A stretch of DNA of 44,131 nt, filler included, from Jimgerdemannia flammicorona (taxonomy: Eukaryota), in assembly GCA_003990765.1 (NCBI GenBank). It is 2 parts of 2 records of this genome, joined end to end, with 100 filler letters (N's around TTAATTAATTAA, not from the genome) between each part and the next. Parts side by side here need not be neighbours in the genome. Positions count along the whole stretch, not along the records: positions 1 to 22,024 come from RBNJ01001350.1; 1 more part is not named here. One strand, written 5' to 3'. Position numbers and translations under genes: made by a program. Below, one piece after another: positions 1-33,309 of this stretch (within the stretch, counting starts at the first letter, position 1; every line of letters begins with the position of its first letter). The notes under the pieces are model-generated. The model was not told the origin of the DNA and did no database searches. It saw only the letters and a program-made list of their open reading frames with translations.

Positions 1-500
1 ACCATTGTTTTGATTTCCAAATTGGACAATTAAATGTTTACATCAATAACTCGATGAATAATCATCCAAATTTGATGATCTTGGTGTCATTTGAAAGCCC
101 TTAATAAGGCCTTTCTAATGATATCAAGAACATTAAAATCGGATTACGCGTTTCCAAGATATTAAGGAAAATGTTCTATTTGACAAAATTTCCAAAATCA
201 GCAAATCGAAGAATTTCCAAAATCGGCGATTCAGACGGTTTCCTTCATAACTCAGCAATGCATGATCGTATTTCAATGTTCTTGGTATCATTAGATAGAC
301 CTTATTAAGGGCTTTCAAATGACACCAAGATCATCAAATGTGGATGATTATTCATTGAGTTATTGATGTAAAAATTTAATTATCTAATTTGGAAATCAAA
401 ACAATGGTTGATTTGAATCCCATCTGAGTTGATTCAGATGGGATTCAATCCGAATCAATCCGAATCCAATCCGGATTAAATTGACTCATTAGGAGCACTA
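1..500. mobile_element. Non-autonomous hAT-type MITE (left end outside window) with large internal inverted repeat
   Basis: Ends ...TTGACTCATTAGGAGCACTA (500), reverse complement TAGTGCTCCTAA, matching the TIR of the 8958-9312 MITE; AATC(C/G)-type subterminal repeats 410-485; 1-~170 is an inverted repeat of ~240-408; CpGs retained. Confidence 0.85.
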
Positions 501-779
501 TACAAGAATAAGAGCAAGACACCTAAGCTTACAGATGAGCAGTAGTACAACAAGATCATCAATGACTATACTCCTCAAGAAAGATACCCCCATGGTACTA
601 GGATGTACTGCTATAAATACCTGAATGACTGCTGGTCCTGTATCAGTGAAATCAGAAAAATCTGTCAACAAAAGCATAAGTAAGAAGCTGCTGAAGCAAA
701 AAGGAAAGCTGAAGAAGATGATCAGCCCCCAGAGCTTCAAGCTGGCAGTAATGATGAGGAGAAACAAGAACCAGACATC

Positions 780-1200
780 ACCCTTAAGGTTAAGAAGTTT
801 TACTCTGAAGTCAAGATCCCAGAATATAAGATGAAAGAGCCATAGGAATAGACCTCACCAGTATTCAAGATACTACTCTTGAACTATAGATCACTACTCT
901 ACTTAGCACCAAAATTGGAGTCAAGTTGCCAGAGAACTATATCAGAATTATCAAGACCAGAAACAGTCTGGCCAAAAGTGAAATCTCAATTGAAGGAGGA
1001 GTAATAGACCCTAATTACACTGACAAAATCTTCCTCATAGTCAGGAATCACAACCCCACCACCTCATTCAAAGTTAAGAAGTATAATAGAATTGGCCAGA
1101 TGCTGATCTATGAAGTCAAGAAGCCTAAGATCACTAAAGTCATTGAACTCATCAAGACCAAGAGAGGAGAACAAGGCTTTGAATCTACTAGAAGAGGAGC
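780..1200 (+). pseudogene. Retroelement dUTPase domain
   Basis: LKVKKFYSEVKIPEY, AIGIDL, IKTRNSLA (RSSLA motif), GGVIDPNYTDKI (GxIDxDYxGE motif), RIGQMLI, RGEQGFEST (RGxxGFGST motif); frameshift near 830. Confidence 0.92.
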
Positions 1201-1379
1201 CTATAATGTCACTAAGATTACTAAACTTGAGCACAAGAAAGATAAGGACCAGAATAAGTACATATATATCATTAGAGAAAACTTTCCCCTAGAAGAACAA
1301 CTTCTTAAGATCTTGTACCAGAATGAAGAAGTACTTGCCACAGACTTCAGAGATATCTACAATCAAGAATCCAAGTACT

Positions 1380-2704
1380 ACCATGAAGTTGACACTAGTG
1401 ATACTAAGCCCATCTATCAGAAAGTCAGACCTATACTACCTGCCTATAGAGAATGGCTACAAGCAGAACTCAAGAAAATAAAAGAAGTTAGAATCATCAA
1501 ACAAGCTATCAGCCTCTGAGCTTCACCCATTTTCCTTACTCCAAAGAAAGAAAGTAAACCTGGAGAGTTTGCTCCAAGACTCTGTATTGATTATAGGAAG
1601 CTCAATGCAATTACCAAGAAAGCTAGGCAGCTCTTGCCAAATATTCAAGAAATTCTTACCACTCTTAGAAGTGAAGCCAAATACTACACTACCTTGGATC
1701 TGTTCTCAGGCTTCCATCAGATTGATCTCACTCAAGATGTTAGTGAGAAATCAGCCTTCATTATACCTGATACTACCTATATCTACCTGTGAATACTATT
1801 TGGAATATGTAATACTCCAGCAAGTTTTTAGCAAATAATGAACAGAGTCTTCAGTAATGAGATTGGAAAATAGCTCTTTATCTATGTTAATGACATGATC
1901 ATCTTCAGCAATACTATACAGGAATATGTCAACTATATATAGCTAGTTCTCAAGAAGCTCAAGAAATATAGCCTCTACATCAAGCCTAAGAAATGCAAGT
2001 TTGTAGCTCAGGAAATTACCTACCTAGAACATCTCATCAACCAGACTGGAATTTACATAGACTCCATGAAGATTGAGGCTGTTGCAGCCTACCCAAGACC
2101 CAGAACAACTACAGAAGTCTGTGTCTTCCTTAGACTGGCCTCTTACTATAGAAGATTTATCAAAGAATACTCTAATATTGCAGTACCTATCTATGAGCTA
2201 CTGAAGAAGGAGACCAAATTTGAATAGATCAAGGAATGTCAAGAAATCTTCAATGAACTCAAGACAAGATTGACCCAAGCACCCATCCTCAGAAGACCAG
2301 ATTGGAACCTAGAGTTCATCCTGCAGATAGATGTAAGTACTATAGGACTTAGAGCAGTTCTAGCTCAAAAGAAAAATGGACATGAATATGTCATCTCCTA
2401 TATAAGCTAAGATACCCATAGAGTAGAACAGAACTATAAGTCATATAAGCTCAAATGCTTAGCAGTAGTCTGAGCAGTAGATAAGTTCCACTACTACCTG
2501 GCTGGGAAATACTTCACTATTCAAATAGACCACTCCACTCTTGCTTAGCTATTTCACACTCAGAACCCTAAAGGAATATATATCAGATAGATCTACAGAC
2601 TGCAAGAGTATAACTATACTATCAAGTACTACTTAAGAAGAACCAATACTAATGCTGATATACTCTCAAGAATACCCCAAAATACCCTCATCAAAACTAT
2701 TTAA
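1380..2704 (+). pseudogene. Ty3/Gypsy reverse transcriptase and RNase H
   Basis: ASPIFLTPKK, RLCIDYRKLN, LDLFSGFHQI, IYVNDMIIF (YxDD decayed), FLRLASYYRRFIK, LQIDVSTIGLRAVL, IDHSTL, NADILSR then TAA at 2702-2704. Confidence 0.93.
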
Positions 2705-2705
2705 T

Positions 2706-4230
2706 ATGAATAAGGAGCTATATTATGAATTAATCAACTATCTTAGGTAGCAGAAGATGCTCAACCATCTTGAACTCTGGACTATCACCATTATCAACTG
2801 AACTTGGAAATAATTTGAAATAGACAACACTATACTCAGAAAAGGAGAAAAGCTTATAATACCCAAATACAAGAAGTATCAAGTAATGAAGGAAGTATAC
2901 AAATAAGGATACCTAGAAGAAATCAACACATATGATAAAGTAAGAAGAACTATGTGGTGGCCCAAGATAGAAGAAGACTTATACCAATTTGTCAAAGGGT
3001 GTAATAAGTATCAAAAACAGAAACAAGATCAGCAAGATCAGGCACTCAGGTTATCAATAATTGAGTCTATCTCCTTCTACCACATCACAATGGATATTAT
3101 TAGACTGCTACCAGTAATACTATCAGGAAACTGCTATATTATAGTTATCATATATCTCTTTACTAAATAGATAGAAGCAGGAGTATTATAAGAAGCCAAT
3201 ACTCTCTCTATAGCCAACTTTCTGTACTGAGAAATCATCTGCCACTACAAGACACCAAGGCAAATTACTACAGACTATGATACAGAATTTGTCAATAGAT
3301 TCTATAAGATAATATATCAGAAATATAAGATCCAGCACATCAAAGACCACTGCATACCATCCTCAAGAAAATGGACAAATAGAGAGAACCAATAAGACCC
3401 TCAAGAACATCCTGGCGAAGATCTCAGACACATATGATAATTGGAATAACTACCTCTCAACTGCTCTCTCTATCCTATAAGATATATAGTCACAAAGTAC
3501 ACACTTTATCCTAAGAGAACTGCTCTTCAGAGAAGAAGATTCTGATGGAATCTCAGTTATAAATCTAGATCTAACTTGGAGACAAATAGACTCAGAAATC
3601 CAAAGACTATACTAAATCAGGAAGAAGGCTGAAGATTATATCATTAAGTTACAAGTACTGATAAGAAAAAATACAGAGAAGGATCATAAGATCCTAGAAC
3701 TCATCCAAATCAGAGAAAAGGTCCTACTATATTAAAATATAGTAGAAGCCTCATGGTCACAAAAACTGGAGCCCAAATGAGAAGGACTCTTCTATATATA
3801 AGATATTAAAAGAATTATCTTCTGATTTAGAAAACTCTTAGGGACCATACTGCCTACCATAGTACACAGGAACAGACTTAAGAATTATCATGAACCTATA
3901 CAAAAGAAGCAAAACATGATGACTGCCTATGAGGTTCTAGTCTGTGAATCATAACAGCATGTTCTGTGATCAGCAGGCAATCTGTCTGGACTATTCTTTA
4001 AAGGATATGATACCAGCAACTACTCATCCATGAGACTTTCAAAGCCAGAGGAGTTTGAACTATCACTGATTAGTCAAGATCAGAATCAGGCCCTTGCTCT
4101 ATATGAAGAGAGCAACTCTTCACCATCATACCAAAATATATAGAAGATATTAGCCCATAAATACTACTTTTCAACCCTCTGCTAGAGATTATGGGATCAG
4201 CAAATTTTTCAGAACTAGACCAATGAATAA
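2706..4230 (+). pseudogene. Integrase in a separate reading frame with own ATG, with non-chromodomain C-terminal extension
   Basis: ATG 2706 MNKELYYELINYL; WWPKIEEDLYQFVKGCNKYQK (decayed HHCC), MDIIRLLP, ITTDYDTEFVN, AYHPQENGQIERTNKTLK, VHRNRLKNY; frame continues with transition-type stops to ~4230. Confidence 0.85.
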
Positions 4231-4254: not shown

Positions 4255-4264
4255 AGGAGAAAGA
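4255..4264 (+). promoter_or_regulatory. Polypurine tract of element A
   Basis: TTCTTATTT-AGGAGAAAGA immediately before TGT and downstream of integrase; probably G>A-decayed. Confidence 0.7.
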
Positions 4265-5849
4265 TGTAATAGTTATCTCAGAATAATGGCATCAGTACAG
4301 AAGACAGCCTTTTCTTATAAGCCACCAGATTGGAGTATAGAAAGATCATATGGTATGACTTATCTCAGCTATAAGATGAGTAATGATGACTAACCATGAG
4401 TTATTGTGACCACAAGACAGACATATTAAGAAAGATCAAGAAACTGCAGTAGCAATAATCTAAACAAAGCATACAAGAATAGTTCTAAAGACTTACCATA
4501 AACAAAATGCCTACTGCTCACCAAACCTCAAGGTCCAGAAACTACCAAGGTCCCTCAGTCTAGAATAGGATATTCTAAGACATCAGAAGAGCCATGGAGA
4601 CCTATACAAGAAGGACTCCTAGTCTCAACCTAGGTACTGGTGACTCTTATCATTATATCCTCTACTGTCATAAAATGGAAATAAGGATTACTATTACTAC
4701 TGAATATCTCTGGATATGGCAAGAGTATGAAATAAGAAATCTTCTCTGCCAGGAGTTCTCTCAGGCCAGTCCCCAGGAGATTCAAGATACTATCCCCATA
4801 GATATATATAAAATAAGAATAGCAAAGAAGATTCATTGGGTCTTCTGGCATATACTATAGTCAATCTCCAATTTAGAGTATACTAGGATCTCAGACTTCA
4901 AGAAACTATCAACTTGCTACACCAATGCACTAGAGGCCATAGTGGCCACAGAGACTCAGTCCACTATCACCCTTAATAGTGATAAAGTAGAAGACTTCTG
5001 GTATCCCATCCTCTAGAACAACCCAGATAAATTCTTGCAATAATTGATCTCAGCATTCCAAGATCCTAGCATCTAGGTTAGACCTCCCCAAGACCCCACA
5101 TTTGTTTATTATTTTGTAGAAGAGAATGTCATAGACTGGAGAGCCCCCACTGAATGTGATGATGTCATCAGCAATGATGTCATCCCATATGATATATATA
5201 AAATATATAAAGTATGTAAAATAGACATAATGTTCATAGACCTCATCTTTTTTGAAGATAGTCTATCTCTAATCTCTGGCCTTGATAGTGACAAAGATGA
5301 AGCCCCCATGGTCCTGAACATTCTGCTTTAAGTTCTTGGTAACACCAGATTCTATCAGCATCCTTTTTTTGTATAACTGTAATTCTTCTAGCATTCTGAT
5401 CTTGCATAACTCAGAATTCTTCTAGTATCTTTTTTCTATATTACTGAAATTCTACTGGCATCTTAAAACTGTGTAACTATTTATACAGACACTTGAACTT
5501 GTACTTACAACTATAGTTTTCTATGTTCTAGTATTTTATTTAGTTATTGGAATTTATATTTAGTCTTATAACTTAGTAATTATTGAATTATATTTTGTAT
5601 AAATACCCCTCTTATTTCCTCTGAAATAAAGTTAGTCAAGTTCACTTATCCTCAATTCTATGTAAGCAATCTAAGAGATAATAAGACAGTTTAAAGATAA
5701 GAAGTTTGAGGACTATAAGACCTTGGGAAGGTACTCTAATAAGAACTTACTTATAACAAACTTGAGCTTAGTACCTTGGAGAGAATCTGACATATTTGAA
5801 GGACTCAGTGACTACTATATGATACTGTCTAAGATATATTGCTAATACA
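4265..5849 (+). repeat. Long (~1.6 kb) 3' LTR of element A
   Basis: Starts TGTAATAG after PPT; TATAAATACCCC at 5598, AATAAA 5625-5630; candidate end CTAATACA at 5849 (7/8 inverse of start). Alternative CA ends at 5758 and 5792; partner LTR not in window. Confidence 0.68.
4507..5331 (+). pseudogene. LTR-encoded ORF of unknown function (~274 codons)
   Basis: AAAATG start; single frame MPTAHQTS...PMVLNILL* with only TAG/TAA stops explicable by TGG/CAG/CAA/CGA transitions, no frameshift; includes ORF-track 4594..4860. Confidence 0.65.
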
Positions 5850-5859
5850 CATGTATCTC

Positions 5860-8800
5860 TCACCCAATCTCTCTTAGAAAGTCTCTCTCTCTCTCACTAT
5901 TACCCCAAAACACTACTCACCCCTCTACCATCCTAATCCTCTCCCTACTCTTCATATAGATTATCTCTACCAGCCACTGCTGATACTCTCTACCCATATC
6001 CCCACCCCTCAACCACTCATTCAACATATCCAACATCAGCCATTCTCATCTAGCCACCCTCCCCCCCAATAGCAGCCTTCAAACCTCCTCAAATACTAAA
6101 AGCCAATGTCTAGTCATACTAACCCAAATTGCCAGCACCCATTCTAATATTGGCCACTCATCTCCCACCCCCCCCACCAGTCTCCTCCAGAGATTGCCCT
6201 ACCTCCCTCCAGCTGCCAGCCCTAGTGGGTGTACTCTTAGCCATATCTCAATCTCTCTCTAAAAGTCCTTCATTACCTCACACTCCTCTAGTCAGTATTC
6301 AGGGATCTGCATTACTTCTCTCTTCTGCTCAACATCAAGACACTCCTCACACTCCTGAGTGTCCTCCTCCATCAAGTGGCCTATCTGATAGTTCAACATA
6401 ATATTATACTATAGAACTCTCCACTATACTACTCAGAAATTGAGAGAGATCCATTTTGCTATCCAACTGTCCCACTGCCAAATACTATTCTAGTTCCACT
6501 TCTCACTAATCCTCACCCTCTACCATGCCTCTGTCCACAAGTCTTACCCTTGTTCCTACAGGTACTCTATGCCATCTTCTAAGCAGAAATTATCTACCAG
6601 TGCCCCATCCAACAGAAGATGGTCCCACCTCCACATCCAGAGTCCCCAATCCTCTTTCCTCTTATTTCCCCTCTATTGGAGACCAATATGATGTGCTCCA
6701 TCAATCACTCCTCACCAGAATTCCCTATACCACATTCTCTAACTATCCTCCAAAGTCACCAGAGACAAAAATCTCCAGTTATACTATGGGGGGAGAAGCA
6801 GGCTTTCTATATCTCTTGCATGAGAGAAACCCACTCTCTATCTCTCAACTTACTCCCTTACTTCAGCTACCATACCCTCAAGCAGTGAAGATGCTTGAGA
6901 AAATCTACTAGCTCCAGATCTCTTCTATTCACTAACTAAGTCAATACCTCTCAACTAATCTGACTCCATTACTCTGCCCATATTCAGGTCCTGGTTATCT
7001 TTAGAAGTCACTTGACTATCTATGCTGGAAAGTCTAAGTGATACTCTAGATACTACAGTTTAGGTAGCCAGTATAAATTCATCCCTATTACTCTTCTTAC
7101 CAGAGAAATATATTAACCACCCCACTCCAGAAAGGTGCTGCCCCACTCTGTCAACCTCTGCTCTCACCACTTATATGGTAACAAGGAGCCATACACTGAG
7201 AAATAGATCTCTAAATATCAAACAGTCTCTTCTATGAAGACAATTATTCCAATTATATCTCCACCTACTATCTCTCTACCCAGTACCAAGGTCTCACACT
7301 TATACCAGTTGAGCTTAGTGTCAGAGCATCTCTCATATCACTCTACCACACTCTTCAGTACTGCAATGTCTGCAACTAATCTAAGTCCAACTACTATATC
7401 ATTAGCAAATACCCCCACCTTCTAGTTAACCTTTAAAATATTCAACTCTTCTACCTTGTACTATATTCTATCCAGAAGAGGCTCTAGTGACAGCACATAC
7501 AGCATCAGTGATAGAGGGTTCCCATGTATTACTCCTCTACCCAGAGAGAATGAACATCCTCTGTACCCATTCACTATGATCACTGCCCAACTTCCTTCCA
7601 ACAGACTGATCAGGGCTCACCAGACCCCATGAGGGACCCCAATGCACTTCAACACCCTTTCTAACCATATTTACTAGACTCTGTCATAGGCCTTCTCCTG
7701 GTCTAGGAAAACCAGTCATCCATCTACCCCAGTAGTATATATACTCTCAATAATGCTATGTACTCAGGCTATCTTATCTCTAATCAGATGACCCCCTATA
7801 AATCCTCTTTGCTCTACTTCTAAAACCTGTTGAGCCACTTCCTGCAACCTAACCACTAATATCTTTGTGGTCAGCTTGTGGTTCATATTCAGAAGCATAA
7901 TTGGTCTTTAGTTCTTCTACTCCTCTCTCCTCTCCTTGTTCTTAAACAGCAAAGCCATAAGACCTAAGCTCTGCCCTCCAATCTATGCTCCAGAGCCTAT
8001 CACTTTATTGTATATTGCCATCATTTCCTCTGGGGCCAGCTCAACTTCAGCTATCTTCTTTCAGAAATCTCACTATAAACTATCCTCCCCAGGTATAGTC
8101 TTAGAGCTTATTGTCTGCAGCACTTGCTGAATCTCCTCCCTCTGAACAGTAACACCAAGATCACCTAGGCCTGCTATCAGATCTAGGTACTATTCTTCCA
8201 AGTGTCTGTCAATATCTAATACCCCCTCCCCACTATCCTTCTCACTCCACAGATATCTCCACTACTTGCTCAACTGATCCAGGATCTCCAGTATCCCCAC
8301 AACCAACTCCCCAGCCTCATCTAGAACTCCCTCCCACTACTGCTAGACTCTCCTTGCCTACTACAGATGTGACAAAAACTTAGTAGGCTATTCCTCCTCC
8401 TCCAGTCCCTGCCACCATAGCTTGGCTGCCATGTCTTTAATCTGTAGGTTCTCCTCCTACCTCAGAATGCCCTTCAGCTCCTCTGCCTCCAGCCTGACCC
8501 ACCATAGCTGCCAATCTCCCTCTATACCTTCATTCACCAGATCTGTCCAATTCTCCAATACCCTCATCAGTCTCTGAGAGGTCTATCTCAATTTCTGCTT
8601 CCTTTGGGCCCCCTGTATCCTTCTTGCCTCTCTCCAGTACTGTTGTGCCACAGACTTCAATTGCCTCTACTGATCTCTAATCCCTAATCCCACTTCTCTC
8701 CAATCATATATTCTAGCACTAATGTCTATCTCCCAAGCCTCCCATAGTGATTTCTTACCTAATAAGGAAGTATTTAGTCACCAGTGTCTAGACCCCTCCC

Positions 8801-9881
8801 CACTTTCTCCAAAATACCCCCCACCCAATAGATCTCAGTGATCTGACCATAGACATCAAACAGTCTCCAAAGTTCTCTAGATATCTACTCTCCAATAGTC
8901 TGCAGTCAATATCCAGTCAATTCTTGAGTCTAACTCTGCCATCCAGTGGGTAAAGACTAGTGCTCCCAAATGAGTCGAATCAATTCAAATCAAATCAAAT
9001 TGAGAGTTAAATGAGTCAAATCGAATTGGGGATTTTTCAATTTGAATCAATTTGAATCAAATCAAAAGCCAAATCGAATTGAGGGTCTGATTCAAACCCT
9101 AATTTTCAAAATGCAATAACTCAGCGTAAAATCATCCAAATCTAACGTACTTTAGCTTGTTAGAATCACATTAATACGGTGAATCTAACAAGCTAAAATA
9201 TGTTAAATTTTGATGAGTATTCGTCAAGTTATTACATTTTGAAAATTAAGGTTTAAATCAAACTTTGAATTGAATTTGACCTTTGATTCGAATTGATTTG
9301 TTGGGAGCACTAGTAAAGACTCTACAATCCCCCCATCCAAGTTTCCTAGTATCCACTAAAGTACACAGATGTTCAACTTCTTCCTAGGCCTCCATACCCC
9401 TACTCCTATCCATCATCTCTCTATTCCCATCAGTTCTATCTATCTTCTCATCATGTATTATATTAAAGTTCCCCCCAAGACAATCAATTTCTACCTCCAC
9501 TAGTACTCCAGACTCTCACAATCCTCAGATCTATTCTACTCTCTCTCTTCTTTCTGCCAGACAATAACATGACCCAACTACCAAAGACCTCTAGCCTGAC
9601 TTCTTCCAGACTCTCCACACTAATCTACTCCCCCATTGTCCAATGTCCTCAATGTCTCTCTTGCTCTTTCTAATCAGAATACCCACACATTTACTCCAGA
9701 CTACCACTCCTCTCAATTTCTTCATCCAATTCTGACTATCCAATTCTCTATTATACTCAACATCCTACAGTAGAAACAAGTCAGCCTCTGTCCCCTTTAG
9801 CCATTCAAAAATATTATGCCATCTCACTGCCCCTTATAACCCATTGATATTTAGAGATAAGATTTTAGTTGTACTATTCAT
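5860..9881 (-). pseudogene. LINE ORF2 (APE endonuclease + reverse transcriptase), interrupted by MITE
   Basis: MNSTTKILSLNINGL, LGGNFN, SRIDWIL, WSDH, FLDQEKAYDRV, GVIHGNPLSLMLY, GVFANDI. Confidence 0.9.
8958..9312. mobile_element. Complete 355-bp hAT MITE
   Basis: TIRs TAGTGCTCCCAA / TTGGGAGCACTA; perfect 8-bp TSD GTAAAGAC at 8950-8957 and 9313-9320; internal palindrome centred ~9174. Confidence 0.96.
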
Positions 9882-12800
9882 ATTGAATAATTTTTGTTAA
9901 AGGTCATCCATTTACTCTAATACTACCAAAAATTTCTGACAATTTATACTATCTACAGCCTCCATCTTTATATGGTACTCTTCACACACCACCTGCCACT
10001 TTGCCAGTCCTTTTCTTGGGCCCACATATATGTAGCTCTGTCACTTGCAACCATCCATAGTATCTCCTTCCTGACATCATCTATCTGATATACCTCTGCC
10101 TCCAACAGAGTCACTATTATCTCATCTCTGAGTTTCTGTAGCGCCTCCTCTCCATATAAGATCTCTCTCCAGTATCTCTCACTTAGTACCTAGAAATCTT
10201 CTCCTCCCAGCTCCTCTGCTGCTACATTCTCCAGTATCTTCCACAGCCATTTCTCCTTAAGTTCAGCCTCTGCCACTCCCTGAGCCACTCTCTGAACCAC
10301 CCCCATCCTCTCTTCCACCTGCCTCCTCTCTACATTTCTCCTTGCCAACTTATTCCAGTCCTCCTCTAGAATATCCTGCAATTCATCATCACTCCTGACC
10401 CTATCTGGTACTCCATACTGAGAGCCCTCCCTCTCTGTCATCTCTATATCCTCCACAATAATACTCAATCATACACTCTCCCCCCCTCTTAGACTTCCCT
10501 CTTGTACTGCTTCCTTCTCTCCTGCCCAGACACTTGCCTCAATCTAGCCTCATCAGTGACTTTCCTCCTAGCTGCCCCCCCTCCCAACTTTGCCAGCAGG
10601 TCCTTCTGAACATACCTCCCTTATGTCCTCTCCCAGGCTGCCTGATCTAATTATACCTTCTTGCTATTGATAATCTCTACCACCATCTTGGCCTCATACT
10701 CCTTCTAGACCAATCTCTTTCTCTCTACAGCTTTAGCCAGATCTGTCAGTATCTCCAGCAAGTCCTCTTCCTCTTTCAATGTCCTCTTCACTCTTGAGAT
10801 CTTGCATTCCACAGAGCCCCACTTTAGTACCACTAACCAGTCTCTTGTCTTCTCCATATTCTTCTTGCCTGCTAGCTATACCCTGACATCCACATCTCCA
10901 GTTCTGAACTCAGTACCCTCTCAGACTCTAAACTCAATATCTACAATCTCTCCATACTCCTTAACTATCTCCACAATCAGTCTCCTGGCCATTTCCTTCA
11001 ATATGATTAGTATATCCAGCACCATCAACTATACTACTTAAGGATTCCAGTATAAGTACTATACTATAGAGATTGCCACTCTCTCCATTATCACTCTCTT
11101 CTCCATTGCCTCCAATAGCACCTCTTTCTGCTTGAAGCCAACCTCCACCCCTTTCTTTCCCTTCAAAAACTTCACTGATGTAGCCCCCTTCACCTCCTGA
11201 GCCAGTAGTTCTAGAATTATTCTTACTGTAACTGTCAAGTCTTAGAAGCACAGCATAATAGTGAATTCTGACCTCAATTTCTGAAGTAATAGTACCACTA
11301 CCAGTTCTATCACACTATCCACCATGTCTCCAGACCTCATGTCCACTCTCTGTTCAGATCTACTATCAGTTGTCATAACTGGATTTTTTTTTCAGATTAG
11401 TAGTCTCTCTGCTATCAGCAGTCTCACTCCCTCTAGCCACTACTCCCCCAGCCATACTGCTCTTATCTCTATGAGCTACTCTCTCAGAGCCTACAGCCTT
11501 TACCATCTCCTTACCCTTCCTCAGCCAGCCTTCCAACCTAGTCATTATTGTCAGTTGACCTCTCTTTATCTTGTCTGTAAAGCTTATTCTCTCTGTTCTC
11601 TGTCCACCTATACTGCTCCCTTCCCTTCCATATCCTCTTGTAAGCAAGCTCCTCATGCTTTCTCCCAAGCCATAGCTCCTCCCTACATGCTGCCAGTCAA
11701 ATGCACTAGAGCTATCCTGCCCAGCATACACTTTGGAATACTCAACAGATGACATATTACTAGTACTTTTTCTTCAAAAATAACAACTTGAGAGTTGCTT
11801 AAAGTTTATATAACCTGAATATTACTGGAGAAAGGTTTTTTGGATGAGGTATAGTATATCATCTGTAGTAACTATATTATTATTCTTAGATATAGACTTG
11901 GTGAGGATCTTGAGGCTTTTAATGAGGTTCTGATTAATGAAGTTCCCTATAGCTCTACTGTTTATACATAAGTACTTGAACCTCTTTTCCTTTGACTAGG
12001 TCTTTGAAAATGAACATAGCATGAGCTCAATTTTCAGTAAGACTTACTATTTGATTAGTTCTACCAAAATATTTTAGTCTCATTTGGTTTTGGAGAGTTC
12101 TTGGACTTCTGTAATCTTGGATTGACTGGCTTTTTCTAGGATCATTTATGTGACTTAGTCTCCTTCCTTAACTATATAATCTTGATCCTTCTGGTTGATA
12201 AGTAAGATTTAAACTTATCCTCAAAAGTCTGAATCAATGATACCAGTACCTATATCAAAATAATGTTTGATACTAAGTCCTAATTATGATACAATTCTAG
12301 TATAATATCCTTCAGGACATTAGACTACAATTTCAGTAGGTATCAGAGTTTGGTCCTTGGCTGGAATGGTGACTTATTTGACAGAATGTAGATCAATACT
12401 GATGACTTCTTCTGTTTAATATTGAGGGGTCTGGACTTTTGGATGAAGCTTCTTGATCTTGAGCTTGGGTTGACAGATAGTAGGATTGATAGGTATATCT
12501 TTGGACAATACAGTGACTGATCTAAAAGGTTTGCTAGTCTTCTTAGGATATTTGGTTATAATATATCCTGTTTGGCAATAGAAGAAATAGACTCCAGATT
12601 TCTTCAGGTGGTCCTTTTCTTCAGAAGTAAGCTTAGTACTCTTTAGTATCCAAATCCATTGATGCTAGGCCAACTGTCCTTGGTTGGTTTCTGTGGCAGT
12701 TCTCAAAATGGTTCTTTTTATAGTATTCTGGTTTAAAGTAGTTACTAAAGATAATGACATTAAACCTATTTGCAATTCTCATAGCTTCATTAAGGCTTTG

Positions 12801-13508
12801 TGACTCTTCTAACTTAATCTTGACTCATGTATTTCCCTTCAGACCTCAGACATAGTAGTTTAGCTTTTCATCCTCAGCTATTGCTAGTAGTTTGAGTAAG
12901 ATTAACAAGAATTGTATATTGTAGCTTTGCATAGACTTGAGTTGTTTGATATTCACTAACTTGTCCCTGACTAGCTTAGTAGTATTAGCAGACTTGAACT
13001 GCTTGTGAAGGGCTCTCTTAAAAACTTTCCAATCTTTGATTCATATATTTGAGTATATAGATATAGTCATAATATAATTATACTACCAAATAGCTATATT
13101 TCCTCAGAGAAGTATGACAGCAAATTAGACTTGCATATCTTTTTTCATTCTTGTGAGCTTAAAGTATTGGTCCAATTGAAAGGTCCATACATCTGTAGAT
13201 AGTCCTTCTTAATGACTATTGAAGATATCTAGCTTAAGTGGCTTAAAACTGACTGGTGCTGTAATGAAATATGATATACTTACAGTTCTTATTTTCTGCT
13301 GGTCTAGTTGTACTTGAAGTACTTAGATTTGATAAACTATAGAGGTGATCATATCCTCTATATTTATTTGTAGTTCTTCTGCTTCTCTTATAGCAGAGAG
13401 GTCTAGCTGATAGGCTGACTCTTTGTAGCTCATTTCAGATTTATATGACTAGTTGTAACTAGTTTCCAAATTTGTATAGGGTTTCTTAATAAGGCAAGGT
13501 GTAATAAC

Positions 13509-13521
13509 ACCACTGCTACCA
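13509..13521 (-). promoter_or_regulatory. Primer-binding site, initiator tRNA-Met type
   Basis: TGGTAGCAGTGGT 2 nt inside the LTR end; TGGTAGC is complementary to the GCUACCA 3' end typical of eukaryotic tRNA-iMet. Confidence 0.75.
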
Positions 13522-13523
13522 AG

Positions 13524-13995
13524 TATAATAGTTCTAGTTTCTTTAAGAGGAAGTAGCTAAGTCCAGAAGTTCTAGTAAGTCTAAAGTAGCTTAAAGAGAT
13601 ACTTAAAGGTTCAAGTATTCTCAAAGGATTTCTAGAAGAAAATATTCTGAGCTTTATTCAGATAGAGAATAAGGATATTTACATATAATCTAAAAGAAAG
13701 ATCCAGAAAGATCTTAGAAAGAAAGAAGAAAGAGAAATATCAAAAAAATAGATTTTTGATAAAGCTGACTAATATGATTCTATAATGTTCTAAAAGGTTC
13801 TATAACTATCTAAAATAAGATACTTAGTATTATGAAAATATAAGAATATTCTAATAGTGTCTAGACAGCAAGAGAAGATTTTTAAGCAAGTAAAAGATAT
13901 CAGAATATAGTATAATATTTAAGAAATAACAAGAAAAGACTAGCTAAAAGATACAAAAATATACTAAGACGAAATATAACTGCAAAACTATTATA
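13524..13995 (-). repeat. 5' LTR of element B (472 bp)
   Basis: Inverted termini TATAATAG...CTATTATA (decayed TGTAATAG...CTATTACA); TATA-like and AATAAA on minus strand; PBS adjacent. Confidence 0.78.
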
Positions 13996-15365
13996 TATCA
14001 CCTGTTTATCCTATATCTCAGCCAGAGCTAGAAGCCTTAAGAGAGACCCTAAAGATACTTCTTGATAAAGAATATATTGAACTCTTATAAAGCACCTATT
14101 CTGGTTATAAAAAAGAAAGATAGAATATTAAAGATATGTATAGACTACTGTATACTTAATAAGATCACTATATAAGACTAATATTCTCTATTTAGTATAA
14201 AGAACTACTCACTCAGTTTTACAAAGCTAAGGTTATGACCTTTGGTAATCTTAAAGAAGAATTTTTGCAGATAAGAATGGATCAAAGAGATATAGAGAAA
14301 ACAGTCTTTAAAATAAGATATAGATATTATTAATTTAAAGTTATACTCTTTGGATTAACTAATACTCTAGTAATATTTCAGACCTTTATAAATAACATCT
14401 TTAAGCCACTGTTAGACAAGTGTATACTAGTCTATATAGATGATATTCTTATCTATAGTACATATAACTTAAAAGAGAGTACCTTCAATATCTGTAAGAA
14501 GTCTTCACTATACTGAGAAAAAATCAATTATATCTAAAGCTTGAAAAATCTCACTTCTTATAAGAAGAAAGGACATATTATTGGAAAAAGAATAGTTAAA
14601 ACCTCACTCAGACTGATTAAAGCTATAGAAGATTAGCTCTAACCAGAAAATCTTAAAGAATTATAAGAATTTCTAGAATTATCTAACTTCTTTAGATAAT
14701 TTATAAAAAGATTCTCTAAAGTAGCAGTCTCTTTAACAGTACTTACTCAAAAATCTATAAATATTAAAAAACATTAGACTTCTATCCAAATACAAGCCTT
14801 TGATTATCTAAAAAGACTTTTTACTAATATACTAATACTGATAATTTCTGATCTAAAAGACTTTTTTAAAGTCACTACTGATGTATCAAATATATATAGC
14901 AATTTACTTAAAAAAAATATTCAGTAGCTTACTTTTCTCAAAAGTTAAAAAATTAGAAACAAGATATACTACTTATGAAAAGGAATTATTTACTATAGTC
15001 AGAAGCCTTAAAGAATAGAGATACTTCCTAATAGGAAAATATTTTTCTATCATTATAGATTATTAATCTCTTATCTATATTTACTACTAATCTACTTTGA
15101 CTAAAGATAAGTAAGATAGATAGAAGCTTTAGTAGATTATGACTTTATAGTAGAATACTACTTTGAAAAAACAAATATAATAGCTAATGCTCTTTTAAGA
15201 ATAAAACTTATAGATTCTTACAAAATCCAATCAATAATTTAAGACTCAAAGAACTGATCAAGAAGATAACTCTCAAAAGAAGAGTTAATATACTATAATG
15301 AAACAAGAGTCTTAATTTCTAAAAATCAAAAACTAAGACTTCAAATTATATAAGAATACTATAAT
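13996..15365 (+). mobile_element. Heavily degraded Ty3/Gypsy pol fragment (RT, RNase H, start of integrase)
   Basis: SPVYPISQPELEAL, KKKDRILKICIDY, LFGLTNT, VYIDDILIYS, VTTDVS, YEKELFTIV, NIIANALLR. Confidence 0.85.
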
Positions 15366-15622
15366 TAGTAGATTTGATTCAAACTCTATTTTTTAAAATA
15401 TAATAACTTGGTGAAAACATGTTCAAATTTAACAATCTTTTGCTTATTAAATTCCTCTATATAAGAGAAATCTAACAAGTTAAAGATTACTAAATTTGGA
15501 ATTTCTAAAAATAGGGTTTAAATTTAGACTTTTAATATAATAATTCAATTTCTATTTGATTCAAACTTAATTTGAACCAATTTGATTCGATTTGAATTAA
15601 TTCAATTCATTTGAGAGTACTA
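15366..15622. mobile_element. Degenerate, left-truncated hAT MITE of the 8958-9312 family
   Basis: Right end TTCATTTGAGAGTACTA; internal palindrome similar to 9090-9260; no left TIR or TSD recognisable. Confidence 0.75.
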
Positions 15623-17931: not shown

Positions 17932-20277
17932 CTCTCTAGTAACATTCAGATTATACAACTTTTGGACAATACTTGTAATATTGTTTTTGAAGAAAAGAGA
18001 CTAACAACATAGTGACCAACAGGCGTTCTGAGATATATACTGAGTAGAGTGGCTCTAGCATATTTGACTAATAGTATATAGAGAGGAGCCCTGGCTTAGG
18101 GGAAAGTATGAGAGGTCTGCTGGCAGGAGGAAGTAGAAGAGGAGAAAGCAGAGATGGTAGACAGGAGATAGAGAGGGCAAGCTTTGTGGATATAGTGAAG
18201 GGGGGACAGCTAGCATCTAGGCTGAAGAGCTGGCTGAGGAAGGGCAAAGAGGTAGCAAAGACTGCAGAATATAGGAGAGCAGTCCTTGGCAGTGGGGGCA
18301 GTAGAGCTGGAAGTATAGGGGCTGGGGTGAGTATAATGGCTGATAGCAATGAGACTACTGATCTGGAAAAAAATCCAGATATTACTGCTAATGGTAGAGT
18401 TAAAAGAATTGGACTTAGATGGATGAGAGATCTGGTGGATAGTGTAACAGACCTAGCAGTGACCCCATTACTCAAGAAGTTGATCTCAGAGTTTATGGTT
18501 ACTTTGTGCTTTCAGGGCTTGGCAGTAATGGCAAAAATAATACTGAGGCTAATTACTAAGCAGGTGACTAGAGTAGTATCCATGAAGTTCCTGAAGGGTT
18601 TAGAAAGAGTGGAGGTAGGTTTTGAGGAGGCTGAGCCACTGGAGGATGTGCTGAGGGCTGGGCTGACTATTGGGGAGATGTGTATACTGATGATATGCTG
18701 CTTGAGATGAGATCCCAGAGTGATACAATTGCTGGTAAAAGAGGTGCTTATAGTGACTACTATAGAGATGAGGAGAAGAGTCAAGGAAATCATAGCTGAG
18801 TATAGTGAGGTAGTGGATATTGAGTTCTAAGTCTAGGAAGGGACCTCATTCTAAACTAGAGATGTTGATGTCAGGATCTGATTGGCAGAGAAGGAGGCTA
18901 CTGGGAAGACTAGAGACTGACCTTTAGTAATGGTCTGGGGGGCATTCTTGTGCAAAGTGACAAGGGTGAAGGGGAGTGAGGAGGAGGAGGAAGAGGATTT
19001 GTTAGAGGTACTAGAGGAGCTGAGTGGTACAGTAGAGTGGAGGGTGAAGGCTTGGAAGATATATATAGAGTTGACATATTTGGAAAAGTGGATTCAAGTA
19101 GATAAGGAGCTGTAGGAGAGGTCTCAAGAATGCAAGAGACAGAGAGAGCTACTGACAAGTCTGGAGAGTAGGACAAAGAAGAATGCTAGTAGAATTGAGA
19201 ATGTAAGAGGTACCAAAGCAAGCATCTAGACTAGAGAGGGTAGAGAGAATGTAGGGAAGGGGCAAGGAGCAGACAAGGAGACAACTAGCAATAATCCATA
19301 TGCAGATAGTACATTTGAGATCTGGGAGGACTCTCCTACTCCTACTCCTCTTATCAGATAAGGTCCAGCTTCAAGGGGTAGGGTGGTAGAGGCTTTGTCT
19401 ATACAGGGGGCTCAGTGAGTATACTTTGGAGTTCCTGAGGTAGCAAAAGAAGGACAAGTGGTGGTGGCTAGTGAGGATAAACTGGTGGATATCTCGGAAG
19501 AGAAGTGAGATAAGACAGTGAGTATAGGGGCAGATACAGTAATGCTGGGTAGAGGGTGGCCAGTGACTCCTGGGGGAAAGAAGGTGAGAAACCTACTGTG
19601 GATATGCCAGATGATGAATAACTTTACAGCTGAAGAGCTGGAAGAAGTAGACCTGAGGGTGTTGAGTAATGAGCAGTGGGCAAGGATCTTATATAGCAAT
19701 GGAGTGGTGGAGGCATTGAAGGCAGAGGTACTTACAGTTTTCCTAGAGAAAGAAGGGTATGAGATTAATAAAGAGAGGGAGGCTGAGCTGGTAGTTGCTG
19801 CTGGTGAGCAGACTACCTTCTGTTGGATGGAGTATCATAGATTACAGCTCTGATAGGAGGCCTGCCTGAAGTATTATGAGGAGTTTGAGGAAAAGGAGAA
19901 TGGAGTGATAACTGCACTACTAAATAGATTGGAGGCTATAAGGGCTGAAGAGGAGGTGGTTTCTGCTGAATATGATCTGGACTTGGTATAGAAGGAGATG
20001 AATATGGAGCAGTAGAGGATGTACTTAATATTATATATTATTTCTTATGAATAGTATAATTAACATTTTTTCTTTAAATATAAATAGGTTATGGAGTTTG
20101 TTTTGATGTCAGAATATTTTTGCTTAGCTGAAGAAATTGGAAGCCAATCTCTTTCTTTTGTAAGATATCAGATATGAGGATGATTTGGATAGACTGGAAT
20201 GGACAAAGGAATAGAGAGATGAGGCAGTTTGGAAGAACAAGATTGGGATTCTGGTCTGGAGAGGTAGAGAGAAGGTA
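17932..20277 (+). mobile_element. L1/Tx1-like LINE 5' part (5' UTR, ORF1, first ~77 codons of ORF2)
   Basis: ORF1 18108-18710 homologous to 11366-11755 (SF.D..K.GQL....L..WLRKGKE); ORF2 ATG 20047 MNSIINIFSLNINRL; cut at 20277 by a TGT-starting insertion. Confidence 0.88.
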
Positions 20278-20565
20278 TGTAAGCATACAACCTCCAAGCT
20301 ATCGAAATTACATGTCACCCTCTGAACAAGCCACTGAAATAACATGTGACCTCCGAACAAACCTGGAAATCACCTGCTTGATCACGAAGCTGAGTCAAAC
20401 CGAAGTCACAATGCACAAAGCTGAGTCAATATGAAGTCACAGAATACAAGATCTACACAAATGGAATCTTACCAATCAGGACCAAATGCATATATACTGA
20501 GCACCGAGACACGTCAAAACAGAGAACCAAGACAAACAACAACCACAACTTCCAAACATACAAAC

Positions 20566-21126
20566 ATGACCACTGAGATCTACAACTGTATCTGTGCTGA
20601 CATTTGGAATGTCATTGTCAACCGAGCCACACCCCCTCTACCCTTCATGAACATCCATAGCCTGACACCCCTCTACTTCGTGGAAGCCTGATGAAATGCC
20701 CTGAACATGCTTAGCGAGGCCCACCGAATCGGACAAATCTCAAGCTACTACAAGATCAGCCGCCTCCTGGAAGACATGGTCAAACACCGCCATGATACAG
20801 ACATTACCCAGATGTCTCAACACCAGAAGCTCATCACCTGCAAACATCGAGAACTCTTCTATGAGTACAACACCTTTATTCCCCACCTCCGAGTCACTAC
20901 CAGCGAAATGGTTACTACCCTATCCTATGGCCAAATTAATGACATGATACAAGAACTCAATCACAAGTACCTCAAATACATCCAGACTACAGACAGAACC
21001 TTCCTACACCCTGATGACCATATCCTGCAAATGCCTCAAGTCAGATACGCTATGAAGGATGTCTACAATATAATCCACTTCGATGAAGATGAAGCAAAGA
21101 CAATGATCTCTCTGATACTGACATGA
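20566..21126 (+). pseudogene. LTR-encoded ORF A, unknown function (186 aa)
   Basis: CAAACATG start; joins ORF-track 20431..20691 and 20707..21126 across TGATGA (likely CGACGA). Confidence 0.68.
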
Positions 21127-21662
21127 CCTCTAGCCAAGGATCTCTGTCAACCCTGATCACTCCGCCAACCTTGCCAATAAACCTACAACAGTTCATAACC
21201 ACATACGAAACTTATTGGGACAATGACCACTGGCACGAATACTAACCCGCATTCACCCCCAATTACTTCAATTACAATGAAGAGACCAGAGAATACAACC
21301 TGTACCTCCAGACAACCCTCGAGATCGAACCAACAACCCCACTACCTGAGTACAAGTGATATGAACCACAGCCGCCAGCTTACTACAATCCTGCAACTCA
21401 TAGTGCTGTAACCTATAGAAGATATGCAGATAGTGAATCCGATGAAAGCAAAAACAATACACCCCTCCTTCACTCACCAATACCTTATCCAGTGTACGAG
21501 ACAGACGATGCTATCCTGTGAGACAGAGATGAAGTTCTAATGTATTATTATCTCAGCAAACAAGGAGAAGTAATCCGCGAACCATTATTCCTAGATGACT
21601 ACTTCATCAGAGATAATGCAATCGATGGTGATGTCATCGAAGACTACCCAGATAGTGCCTAA
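21123..21662 (+). pseudogene. LTR-encoded ORF B, acidic Tyr/Pro-rich, unknown function (179 aa)
   Basis: ATG overlaps ORF A stop (ATGA 21123-21126); MTSSQGS...DVIEDYPDSA*; three internal stops (TAA, TGA, TGA) all revertible to CAA/CGA; not in the ORF track. Confidence 0.62.
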
Positions 21663-22024
21663 ACCCATAAATAGCCTAGCAGTCATAATATAGTTAGATT
21701 AGCCTTGTATGACGTGACTGTGAACTGACTCAGCAGTCAGACAATCTCTTGACATGTCAGATCACACTTGTACTATGTGACTGCATTCCAACTCAGCAAG
21801 GCACTTAGTGCTACATCCATATTTAGCATAGTCTAGATAGCCCCTCACTAATATAAATACCCCCTCCCCCAGACCTCAGAATCTCAGACTTGAACAGACT
21901 CGAACACACAAGAACATTCCTAAATACTTCCCCACAATATCCCTTCACACAAATACTCCTAGTATAGCAATATCATGAATAGCAAATAAATCTATTCCAT
22001 AACCCACAAACCACTCTTTTTTTT

Positions 22025-22124
22025 NNNNNNNNNNNNNNNNNNNNNNNNNNNNNNNNNNNNNNNNNNNNTTAATTAATTAANNNNNNNNNNNNNNNNNNNN
22101 NNNNNNNNNNNNNNNNNNNNNNNN
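22025..22124. other. Assembly gap with artificial six-frame-stop linker
   Basis: 44 N + TTAATTAATTAA (22069-22080) + 44 N = 100 nt. Confidence 0.97.
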
Positions 22125-23427: not shown

Positions 23428-24099
23428 CTTATCTATAATGGCCATCTCTCCTCCTATCCTGACAACACCTGAAAAGCAGTCACCTATACCAGAACCATGC
23501 TCACCAGGAAGTTTGCCAAAGCCAGAGGGCCCTACCACAGGCACCAAGGACCTACAGATAACCTATACTGAGCACTTGATACCCAAGGTCAGCCAACTCC
23601 CTATGTAGCCCAAGATATACTGAAACAGCACCTTGTTGGTAATAGTAAAAGAAAGAAGGCACCACACCAAAATGGATATATTCCAGATATAGCCAAAGGC
23701 ACTAGAAACCATAAAAAAGTAAAGAAGACACCAATCTGATACTGATAAAAGGGCAACTCATCACTATTGCCTCTCTCCCACTGCTCTGCAATATATACAG
23801 CAAACCAACCCAAGATAGAGGGGGTAATAATTATGGAAAGTGGACTTGGAAGGTTGCCTACCAAACCATTGTGACTGGTAAGATAGCAGAGAAAGAACAT
23901 TGCTGACATATATATCTCAATCTCTCTTATTATATATACTATACTAACTAAATAGCTAATCACTGTCTAATGTTTGGCTAGTACTATCTTACCTTTATTA
24001 GTATGATGGCTAAAGATAATAATAGTTATCAAGCCCTTTAGATCTTTACTATTATCTAGATAGAATTTCGGCTGCCTCTGTTCAGACTTGCAAGATATC
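23428..24099. other. Unassigned decayed segment, possibly coding (His-Me/HNH-like pattern on + strand)
   Basis: No similarity to other repeats in window; + frame reads LCNIYSKPTQDRGGNNYGKWTWKVAYQTIVTGKIAEKEHC*HIYLNLSYY. Confidence 0.3.
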
Positions 24100-24869
24100 T
24101 ATAATAACTCTTAATTCTATCTCTCTCTTATCCTTTAGATATTTAGAGAAATAAGGTATTACTTAGAGACTTAGTATATAATATATACCAAGAAGCCTTC
24201 AGTACTTACTTGAAAGTAGTTGTAACAGCAGTACTCTTCTTATCAATCTTGGTTATAAGAGACTTGTTCTTTGCTATGTATAGACTGAATTTACCTTAAA
24301 ATTTAGGTTCAATGAGTTTACTTAAGTCTTTGTAATTTATATACTAGTCTTAGTTCTGGCAGAAGTTAGCTAGACTTTGGAAGTTTAGTCAGAAATACTA
24401 GAGTTACTTAGATGTCATTACTAAGACTCAGGAGAATGTATGTGTAGAGGAGGGAACTTGATTATTATATTAAGAACTAAATTAAAACTGCTTTATTTCA
24501 GATAGAAACTGGGGGGTATTTATATAAGTTGGTCTGCAATTTTCTGACTAAGTATGAGTGATTAATTTGGTAACTATAGTGAGGTTTGTGATCACAACCT
24601 TTATTAGGTAGTTTTTGGTAAAAACATCTTTGTGATCAGAATCTCAATTACTAGGTAATGATTAGTTACTGTGGTAATAGTTGCTGTAGTACCAATTGTC
24701 AGAGATAAACTGGATATCATTTTTTATATTGTTTTCTGTATTGTTTGTTCATTTATTTATAATATCATATGTTATGCTCGATTGTATAATAATATCATTG
24801 CTCACTGGGTCATGTGATCACTTGTCTTGTCATGTCTCATCTGTTCACTTGTTCATTTATTCTATTACA
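24100..24869 (-). repeat. Downstream LTR of element C (770 bp)
   Basis: Termini TATAATA...TATTACA; aligns with 32361-33009; TATAAATACCCC and AATAAA on minus strand. Confidence 0.92.
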
Positions 24870-25227: not shown

Positions 25228-25601
25228 GGGGTGGGTGATAGCTGGCTCACTGTTGGGTGGGTGTTAGTAGTTTGGGTGAGTCTGGCGGGTCATTGGCTAT
25301 TTGTGTTTGAGGAGGAGCAGTAGATGAGCCTGCAAGAGAAGGTTGTAAGGTGGGAGGAGTTGTTGGGGGATCTGTTGACTGGATGGTGGATAGGTTGGGG
25401 TCCCTCAGGGCAGCGGCAGTACAGTTTGGTGACAAGGATATGCGAACAGAGTGGTGAGAGGGTGGGAATTATATTCGATAGAGTGGTGTTTCATCGAGAC
25501 AGAGTAGGGGGGAGGGGCCCCCCTAGGGGGATTGGATAGGGGGTGGGTTTATTGTATTTATATCAGATAGATGGGTGTAATAAAGGATGAGTCCAAGTGA
25601 C

Positions 25602-25631: not shown

Positions 25632-25636
<5 letters not shown>

Positions 25637-32340: not shown

Positions 32341-32357
32341 ACCACCTGCTGCTACCA
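32341..32357 (-). promoter_or_regulatory. Primer-binding site, initiator tRNA-Met type
   Basis: TGGTAGCAGCAGGTGGT 3 nt inside LTR end; matches PBS of element B. Confidence 0.78.
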
Positions 32358-32360
32358 AGT

Positions 32361-33009
32361 TGTAATAACTCTTAATTCTATCCTTCTCTTATCCTTTGGA
32401 TATTTAGAGAAATAAGATATTACTTAGAGACTTAGTATACAATATATACTAAGAAGTCTTCAGTTTGAGGAAATACTTGCTTGAAAGTAGTTATAGTGAC
32501 AGTACCCTTCTTATCAACTTTAGTTGTAAGAGACTTATTCTTTACTATATATAAATTAAATTCACCTTGGAATTCAGGTTCAATGAGTTTACTTAAGTCT
32601 TTGTGATTTATATACTAGTCTCAGTTCTGGTAGAAGTTAGCTAAACTTCTGGAGTTTAGACAGAAATACTAGAGTCACTTAGATGTTATTACTAAGACTT
32701 AGAGAAATGTGTGTGTGGAGGGGGAGACTTAATTTTTATATCAAGGACTGAACTAAAACTACTTTATTTCAGATGGAAACTGTACAAGTTGGTCTGCAAT
32801 TTCTGACTAAATATAAGTGACTAATTTGGTAACAATAGTGAGATTTGTGATCATGACCTTTGTCAGATAGTTTGTAACAAAAAACACTTTGTATTCAGGA
32901 CCTCAATTACTAGACAATGATCAGCTGCTGTGGTAATAGTTGCTGTAGCACTGATTGTTGGAGATAAGCTGGATATCATTTTTCATGTTGTTTTGCATCA
33001 TTCATTATG
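32361..33009 (-). repeat. 5' LTR of element C, truncated by LINE insertion
   Basis: Aligns with 24100-~24750; ends TTACA next to PBS; cut by poly(T) at 33010. Confidence 0.92.
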
Positions 33010-33305: not shown

Positions 33306-33309
33306 AGTA

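Follow-up and report, generated by a model that had tools for sequence, protein, structure and literature searches.

The stretch of DNA from Jimgerdemannia flammicorona that is analysed here, 44,131 nt long, carries two decayed reading frames (frame 1 and frame 2), each located within a long unit that resembles the long terminal repeat (LTR) of a Ty3/gypsy retrotransposon; in what follows this whole stretch is called the window, and all positions count along it. An earlier note on the same sequence had proposed that the two frames encode an accessory protein family housed inside the LTR. The interpretation that we favour, with moderate confidence, is that both represent dead copies of a true accessory gene belonging to a dUTPase-bearing Ty3 clade, and that in the window this gene lies in the unique 3' (U3) region of the LTR. 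The features on which the discussion draws are collected in Table 1.

Table 1. Position and character of the retrotransposon features discussed in the text.
Feature	Positions	Strand	Remarks
Decayed Ty3 pol, element 1	1..4140	+	Window opens inside pol; many stops and frame changes
Polypurine tract AGGAGAAAGA	4255..4264	+	Directly 5' of the TGT of TGTAATAG
Putative 3' LTR of element 1 (LTR1), 1585 bp, TGTAATAG...CTAATACA	4265..5849	+	
Degenerate TATA-like box catattaagaaag	4422..4434	+	About 80 nt 5' of the frame 1 ATG
Accessory frame 1	4507..5331	+	274 codons and stop; 6 internal stops (TAG x4, TAA x2); dead copy
TATAAATACCCC (5598-5609) and AATAAA (5625-5630)	5598..5630	+	LTR1 core promoter and poly(A) signal
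Polypurine tract AGAGAGAAGG plus TA	20266..20277	+	Before the TGT of LTR2
Second long LTR-like unit (LTR2)	20278..22024	+	Runs into N from 22025
Accessory frame 2	20566..21662	+	About 365 codons; 5 internal stops; one-base frameshift near 21090
TATAAATACCCC of LTR2	21852..21863	+	190 nt past the frame 2 stop
LTR3, related LTR without the frame, about 770 bp, TGTAATAG...GTTATTATA	24100..24869	-	TATAAATACCCC at 24524-24513
Second LTR3 copy	32345..32994	-	83% identical; 5'-truncated; TGGTAGCAGCAGG at 32357-32345, then gag and dUTPase

The first of the two units follows a pol region, that of element 1, whose domain order is the one characteristic of Ty3/gypsy (Metaviridae) elements. With stops read as X, Pfam recognises a dUTPase (820-1190 on the plus strand, E 4e-18) between the protease region and the reverse transcriptase (RT), after which come RT, RNase H and integrase, represented between position 1 and about 3340 by RVT_1 (2.2e-23), RT_RNaseH_2 (6.8e-27) and RT_RNaseH, Integrase_H2C2 (1.5e-8) and rve (7.3e-5); the final integrase-like residues reach about 4140, in another frame. 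What resembled a chromodomain on visual inspection, at about 3900-4060, gave no Pfam Chromo match even at E<=10 in this decayed element. Some 120 nt past the last recognisable pol residues, which is where a polypurine tract belongs, ten purines are followed by TGTAA at position 4255, the only such match on both strands of the 44 kb (0.35 expected). The tract directly abuts LTR1, which has TG...CA termini with short inverted repeats, the reverse complement of its end (TGTATTAG) pairing with the start at 4265 in 7 of 8 bases, and whose first 8-mer, TGTAATAG, is identical to the start of a related LTR elsewhere in the window (LTR3, see below). Past 5849 the base composition flips to that of a C-rich repeat element. 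The promoter motif TATAAATACCCC occurs three times in the window, where 0.23 occurrences are expected.

LTR2 is preceded by a tract in a comparable manner, AGAGAGAAGGTA being immediately followed by TGTAAGC; ten purines, two arbitrary bases and TGTAA were found once on both strands of the 44 kb, at 20266 (0.42 expected), and no Pfam domain was detected in any plus-strand frame of the 5' flank between 20022 and 20277. The 3' end of this unit is missing, since the sequence runs into a contig gap at 22025, and position 22016, which the earlier note had given as the end of the insertion, is thus not an LTR terminus. Frame 2 contains two adjacent stops in its first part, up to 21126; the remaining part, read in the +2 frame as far as 21662, has another three. 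An intact database protein, P0011, is 84% identical to its N-terminal part, and a second one, P0012, is 65% identical and spans both halves, bridging the shift, which the earlier note does not mention, so that frame 2 can be taken as one gene, about 365 codons long. The end of P0004 (DEDEAKTMISLILT) was considered as a match to the C-terminus of the frame 1 family and was set aside, as P0012 reveals it to be out of frame. In both units, therefore, the arrangement described in the earlier note holds: frame 1 lies 3' of the junction between polypurine tract and TGT (AGGAGAAAGA followed by TGTAATAG, 4255-4272) and 5' of TATAAATACCCC (5598-5609), and the second insertion repeats this layout, with the frame at 20566-21662 and TATAAATACCCC at 21852.

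The 274-codon frame that had been recognised at 4507-5331 is indeed present, interrupted by six internal stops. Counting the terminal one, it holds 7 stops, as compared with 18 and 29 in the other two plus-strand frames and 13-22 in the minus-strand frames of the same stretch. When it was compared, with its stops read as X, to 5.8 billion sequences, 4 of 156 candidates proved to be intact relatives (E 1.7e-102 to 4.4e-51); these come from public metagenomes, are 174-271 amino acids long and 59-64% identical to frame 1, and cover up to its full length. Opposite the six stops the intact relatives have Q, Q, W, Q, G and Q, and many of the other differences are transitions. Because the ratio of observed to expected CpG is 0.06 over the whole window (0.0 in frame 1, 0.52 in frame 2), the decay of frame 1 looks like that caused by cytosine deamination, and the depletion fits a methylation-driven loss of CpG in which LTR2 would be the younger unit. 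A profile search of 1.84 billion representative proteins yielded seven matches at E<=1e-3, among which P0014, P0015, P0016 and P0018 (E 9.3e-4) are more distant members of the family; P0017, an ankyrin protein that also passed this threshold, was judged spurious and dropped. None of the relatives is named and none carries a Pfam domain, and Pfam likewise returned nothing at E<=1 for the three window frames.

Members of the family were also located on two metagenome contigs, L001 and L002, which carry intact frames of 291 and 323 codons, respectively. Among three DNA sequences of the family, the proportion of nonsynonymous differences (pN) is 0.33-0.45 and that of synonymous differences (pS) 0.75-0.81, synonymous sites being saturated, and differences are most frequent at third codon positions, followed by first and then second positions. 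Both window copies do contain stops, and a pairwise BLASTP comparison of frame 1 with the two halves of frame 2 was not significant (best E 0.70 and 2.4), which is what would be expected of chance open stretches in decayed repeats. That explanation is nevertheless refuted, and its likelihood practically nil, because intact relatives exist (128-342 amino acids, E down to 1e-102) and pN lies far below pS, a substitution pattern typical of coding sequence. Neither a metagenome scan with the close-family profile A2 (0 of 238 candidate stretches confirmed) nor scans of viral contigs (A2, 0 of 258; A6, 0 of 44; A5, 0 of 86; P0012, 0 of 1) added members; the single match among 57 candidates from prokaryote genome contigs (profile A6), 15 residues in a bacterial metagenome-assembled genome (L003), is regarded as spurious. 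Within the window, tblastn, blastn, tblastx and hidden Markov model (HMM) searches identified no further copy of either frame or LTR.

The proteins of the two lineages share only about 20% identity. The alignment of family 1 (frame 1 and its relatives) with family 2 (frame 2 and its relatives) by hhalign has a probability of 81.7% and an E-value of 1.1e-5 with distant members added to the profiles, and places 125 columns in register, matching positions 23-150 of family 1 with positions 7-131 of family 2. Its score of 45.5 is to be compared with 13.2 for reversed family 2 and at most 16.4 for 40 column shuffles, none of the 41 controls coming near. The protein P0018 forms a bridge between the families, its own E-value being 3e-8 with family 1 and 1.2e-3 with family 2; without it the E-value of the alignment is 1.8e-3, and the shallow profile A2 reached only 0.058 against A3. 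The family 1 HMM, run on the six-frame translation of the window, retrieved frame 2 at E 5.4e-4. Taken together, these comparisons support the homology of frames 1 and 2 through an N-terminal helical domain. The protein similarity that the earlier note had seen by eye was thus borne out in its N-terminal half, where the motifs ..DI..A.. and Y.I..LL (49 and 50 residues from the D) fall in the shared domain, and was lost in its C-terminal half, since the likeness of FVYYFVEENVI..DDVISNDVI to LMYYYLSKQGEVI..DNAIDGDVI scores 11.1 in hhalign, a value that shuffled profiles also attain (40 shuffles, up to 15.7). An accessory protein family of Ty3 elements, new and unnamed, represented by intact relatives and a shared domain, can be considered firmly established.

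Where the gene lies with respect to the LTR is a separate issue. The only two sites in the window at which a polypurine tract meets TGTAA are located 242 and 288 nt 5' of the ATGs of frames 1 and 2, and both frames end 190-270 nt 5' of TATAAATACCCC, the succession of LTR start, frame and promoter being 4265, 4507-5331 and 5598 in one unit and 20278, 20566-21662 and 21852 in the other. This is the layout of a U3 gene of the type of sag of mouse mammary tumour virus (MMTV), provided that 4265 and 20278 are the true LTR starts. The value of TGTAATAG as a terminus is strengthened by LTR3, whose start at 24869 abuts the truncated protease of another Ty3 element; as the intact relative of that protease (39645-39325) continues into RT, TGTAATAG marks a true element end in this clade. 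The gene would thus lie in the U3 of an unusually long LTR, of at least 1.6 kb, and it follows from the mechanism of reverse transcription that it would be copied into both LTRs of each insertion and be retained in solo LTRs.

An alternative is that the gene is internal in all lineages, in the env position between pol and the 3' LTR, the true LTR start lying between its stop codon and the TATA box and the upstream polypurine tract with TGTAATAG being a second tract or the relic of an LTR fragment. Several observations lean this way and weigh against placement in U3. On contig L001 the stop codon of the frame overlaps AAGGAGGGAGGA, which is followed by TGTAATAAG, and the next 45 nt are homologous to the start of LTR3 (score 34, reached by 0 of 2000 shuffles); since the stop overlaps the tract and an LTR3-like start follows, the L001 lineage carries the gene internally, with its end at the polypurine tract. 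The U3 of the LTR3 family measures 345 nt and contains no trace of the accessory gene by HMM, a length close to the 180-270 nt that separate frame and TATA box in the gene-bearing units, as would be expected if their LTRs began past the frame. Furthermore, neither family provided a 5' LTR, a full-length copy or a solo LTR flanked by a target-site duplication, in the window or in the collections searched; the junction at 5849 was not confirmed by aligning other copies of the flanking C-rich element; neither a target-site duplication nor a 3' terminus can be read for LTR2, its 3' end having been lost in the gap; and both copies in the window are dead. An internal location would also agree with that of the additional open reading frames (ORFs) of other LTR retrotransposons, which the accessible text of PMC7264820 places between pol and the 3' LTR.

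Other evidence is difficult to reconcile with an internal gene in the window copies. Neither a run of seven or more purines nor a purine-preceded TG terminus is present between stop codon and TATA box in LTR1 (272 nt), LTR2 (194 nt) or the intact L002 (181 nt), and decay could not have erased such a tract, because transitions keep purines as purines. The tract at 4255 stands about 120 nt past pol, where one belongs, the sequences at 4265 and 5849 form an inverted repeat, and the same order of features is kept in two lineages with so little protein identity. When all this is weighed, the evidence from L001 and LTR3 included, location of frames 1 and 2 in the U3 of their LTRs is held here to be fairly likely, and an internal location in all lineages rather unlikely. 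The earlier note had itself named an internal frame in env position as the finding that would speak against it; L001 shows this arrangement for its own lineage, whereas in the window copies the tract lies 5' of the frame. If both arrangements are real, the position of the gene is not fixed across the family, and gene and polypurine tract have swapped order in the history of the clade.

Contig L001 has one further peculiarity, a 28-nt motif (GTCAGGCGGAAC..TCAGAACA, 86% identical) that occurs at 170-197, 5' of the TATA box of the gene, and again at 1481-1508, inside the downstream LTR, so that the promoter region of the gene may derive from U3 sequence. Reading the two ends of the contig as two copies of one LTR was rejected, as the repeat does not extend beyond these 28 nt. 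On L002 the frame is followed by TGTATAAATACCCCTC, as in LTR1.

It could also be imagined that a gene captured from the host, or an independent small mobile unit, came to be nested in these LTRs by chance. All database relatives are indeed on short contigs (720-4848 nt) on which no context is visible, and L001 itself could be a short non-autonomous element that carries this gene alone. Such an origin is nonetheless highly improbable, given that the order of landmarks is the same in the two divergent window lineages and in L002, that on L001 the gene is linked with both a polypurine tract and an LTR, and that the library of 1.84 billion proteins offered only the relatives listed above, all unnamed.

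Upstream of the frames there may be a promoter of the gene's own. L001 and L002 carry TATAAAAG 80 nt and 65 nt 5' of the ATG, respectively, the TATA-like boxes of the window copies lie at a distance similar to the 65-80 nt of these relatives, and about 20 nt before the ATG are conserved, the stretch AAAGACTTACCA.AAACAAA being 92% identical between frame 1 and L001 over 26 nt. This suggests that the gene was transcribed from a TATA box 65-85 nt 5' of its ATG and that its transcript would have been terminated and polyadenylated at the AATAAA of the LTR.

The encoded protein is predicted to combine a helical domain of some 130 residues, conserved and N-terminal, with a long, disordered, strongly acidic tail. 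The AlphaFold2 (AF2) model of family 1 displays a helical domain at residues ~47-150, with predicted local distance difference test (pLDDT) values mostly of 80-92 from about residue 60 onwards, and disorder at residues 187-271 (pLDDT under 50); the model of the frame 2 N-terminal domain, at a pLDDT of 52.7 too poor to be searched, has its helices in the same order. The C-terminal tails contain 18-27% D+E, have a net charge of -16 to -26 and are studded with interspersed F, L, I and W. The maximal 19-residue hydropathy does not exceed 1.05 in any of nine proteins; there is no membrane segment, and an env-like or Sag-like protein is therefore excluded. No match was obtained by Foldseek against PDB and BFVD at E<=0.001 or by a profile search of PDB sequences at E<=10, and the ESM Atlas yielded nothing usable (best feature score 0.83, structural template-modelling score at most 0.33). 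An exhaustive structural scan peaked at Z 4.4, with no entry at Z>=5, below the level that is informative for helical models; the helix-turn-helix DNA-binding domains (ParB/SopB/VirB-type) in its top rows, at Z 3.1-4.4, fall in that uninformative range and are a lead rather than evidence.

By analogy with the Tas protein of foamy viruses (see below), the product could be a nuclear regulator that activates the promoter of its own element, a function that we prefer to the other mechanisms considered but regard as possible rather than likely, and against which it counts that it is read from composition and from a weak likeness of fold. The main alternative to such a transactivator is an adaptor for RNA export or handling, comparable to Rev, Rex or Rem or to CERV of the nematode element Cer1, the latter being needed for nuclear export of genomic RNA according to the accessible text of PMC10309623. 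In the closest subfamily the N-termini are rich in arginine (RSRNHQG..RRAMRTRTRR), and a hydrophobic motif conserved at the C-terminus (.ILNFLL) could be an export signal, both of which would suit this role; however, neither feature is conserved in P0016, P0018 or the frame 2 family, and no RNA-binding fold emerged from Foldseek or the structural scan, which makes an RNA adaptor decidedly unlikely. If the regulator is retained as the working idea, each LTR, solo copies included, could be viewed as a self-contained gene (TATA box, frame of 270-365 codons, poly(A) signal) for a trans-acting nuclear factor, and the contrast between L001 and the window as the step by which such a gene is taken up into the LTR; this combined proposal is put forward tentatively.

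Genes located in U3 are known from a few retroviruses, sag of MMTV and nef among them. With sag the window copies share a complete coding frame located 3' of the LTR start and 5' of the TATA box, which would consequently be present in both LTRs; in contrast, Sag comes from a vertebrate retrovirus and is a type II membrane glycoprotein, and the Ty3 proteins have neither a membrane segment nor a likeness in sequence or fold to any of the viral proteins searched. Foamy viruses offer a second parallel in Tas (Bel1), the product of a 3' accessory gene that reaches U3 and is preceded by an internal promoter, and which joins an N-terminal nucleic-acid-binding part to an acidic C-terminal activation part. 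The resemblance comprises a 3' accessory gene at or near U3, a putative promoter of its own and the combination of a helical part with an acidic tail, but as sequence and fold do not match, the analogy would be one of function only.

Retrotransposons provide partial counterparts. In the literature searched for LTR-borne ORFs, the expression 'LTR ORF' refers mostly to the MMTV case and, in a few other papers, to ordinary retrotransposon ORFs. The additional ORFs of plant Ty3 and Ty1 elements and of Boty of Botrytis, as far as the accessible text of PMC7264820 covers them, are conserved extra genes of unknown function in sense orientation that are present in most copies, internal, and mostly located between pol and the 3' LTR; L001 fits this description exactly, whereas the window copies lie 3' of the polypurine tract and encode a protein that, lacking a membrane segment, is unrelated to env-like products. 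The rice elements Retrosat2, RIRE3 and RIRE8 likewise combine unusually long LTRs (over 3.2 kb) with an extra, fast-evolving ORF0 of unknown function, which differs in being situated 5' of gag-pol in the internal region, and in a plant lineage (PMC3485330, accessible text). Comparable in pol are dUTPase-bearing chromoviruses of basidiomycetes (PosPlaTy3-5 type), in which the dUTPase lies between protease and RT, as in element 1; a figure legend in PMC2864245 mentions an 'additional ORF with unknown function' for certain elements of fungi, the accessible text stating neither the position nor the product of that ORF. Within the reach of the literature consulted, which includes PMC2864245, PMC3485330, PMC7264820, PMC12037069 and PMC10787394 and outside which lie figures,.doc supplements and subscription texts, a U3-encoded protein was not encountered in any LTR retrotransposon. 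The arrangement, familiar from a few retroviruses, was thus not found described for LTR retrotransposons.

The extra genes of LTR retrotransposons are poorly understood, and those described in the accessible literature belong to the internal region. A gene in U3, if confirmed, would be doubled in each insertion and retained in solo LTRs, and a genome could hold many more expressed copies of a regulator than active elements. Having neither a named relative nor a recognisable fold, the family counts as a new one, associated with a mobile element, and the existence of both arrangements, before and after the polypurine tract, would supply a testable model for the origin of retroviral U3 genes. Entry of a 3' accessory gene into the LTR is the route presumed for such genes, sag and nef among them, and the contrast between L001 and the window, if real, would catch that step.

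The remainder of the window is a mosaic of further mobile sequences. The second LTR3 copy belongs to element 3, in which TGGTAGCAGCAGG, which we take to resemble an initiator-tRNA primer site, precedes gag and, after it, a dUTPase (30400-30690, minus strand, E 1.8e-9). The segments 24102-24735 and 32363-32994 were considered as a full LTR pair and rejected, as the lower copy reaches as far as TGTAATAG at 24869, where it meets a foreign protease; no clean target-site duplication surrounds LTR3 at 24100-24869 (GTTAA versus GATAT). Element 3 is interrupted by the remnant of a hAT-type transposon (27000-30300, minus strand), in which a hAT dimerisation domain (E 1.4e-5) is accompanied by a zinc-finger-like CNHCS..H..H stretch, within a block of 24-27% G+C that also contains, at 29873-29998, a tandem array of at least five copies of a 16-nt, AAATCAAATnAAAGnC-like unit. 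AT-rich blocks elsewhere harbour other decayed Ty3 copies on the minus strand, at 12300-16700 (gag/capsid domains at 12300-13100) and at 36200-39700 (protease, RT and RNase H). The window opens, 5' of the dUTPase region of element 1, with an inverted repeat of 170 nt (positions 1-170 and 239-408; 89% complementarity, spacer of 68 nt), which could reflect a rearrangement or a hairpin-forming duplication. At 22025-22124, two runs of 44 N flank TTAATTAATTAA, which looks like an artificial all-frame stop linker; as it joins contigs, the sequences on its two sides need not be genomic neighbours. Finally, a repeat family of extreme strand asymmetry (GC skew -0.3 to -0.57) is present in several copies in both orientations, on the plus strand at 6000-12000, 22125-24000 and 40000-44131 and on the minus strand at 18000-20021, 25230-25640 and 33000-36000, each copy opening with a long poly-T run and ATAGTCACTTGGACT, and the copies together forming large inverted repeats around the elements studied here.

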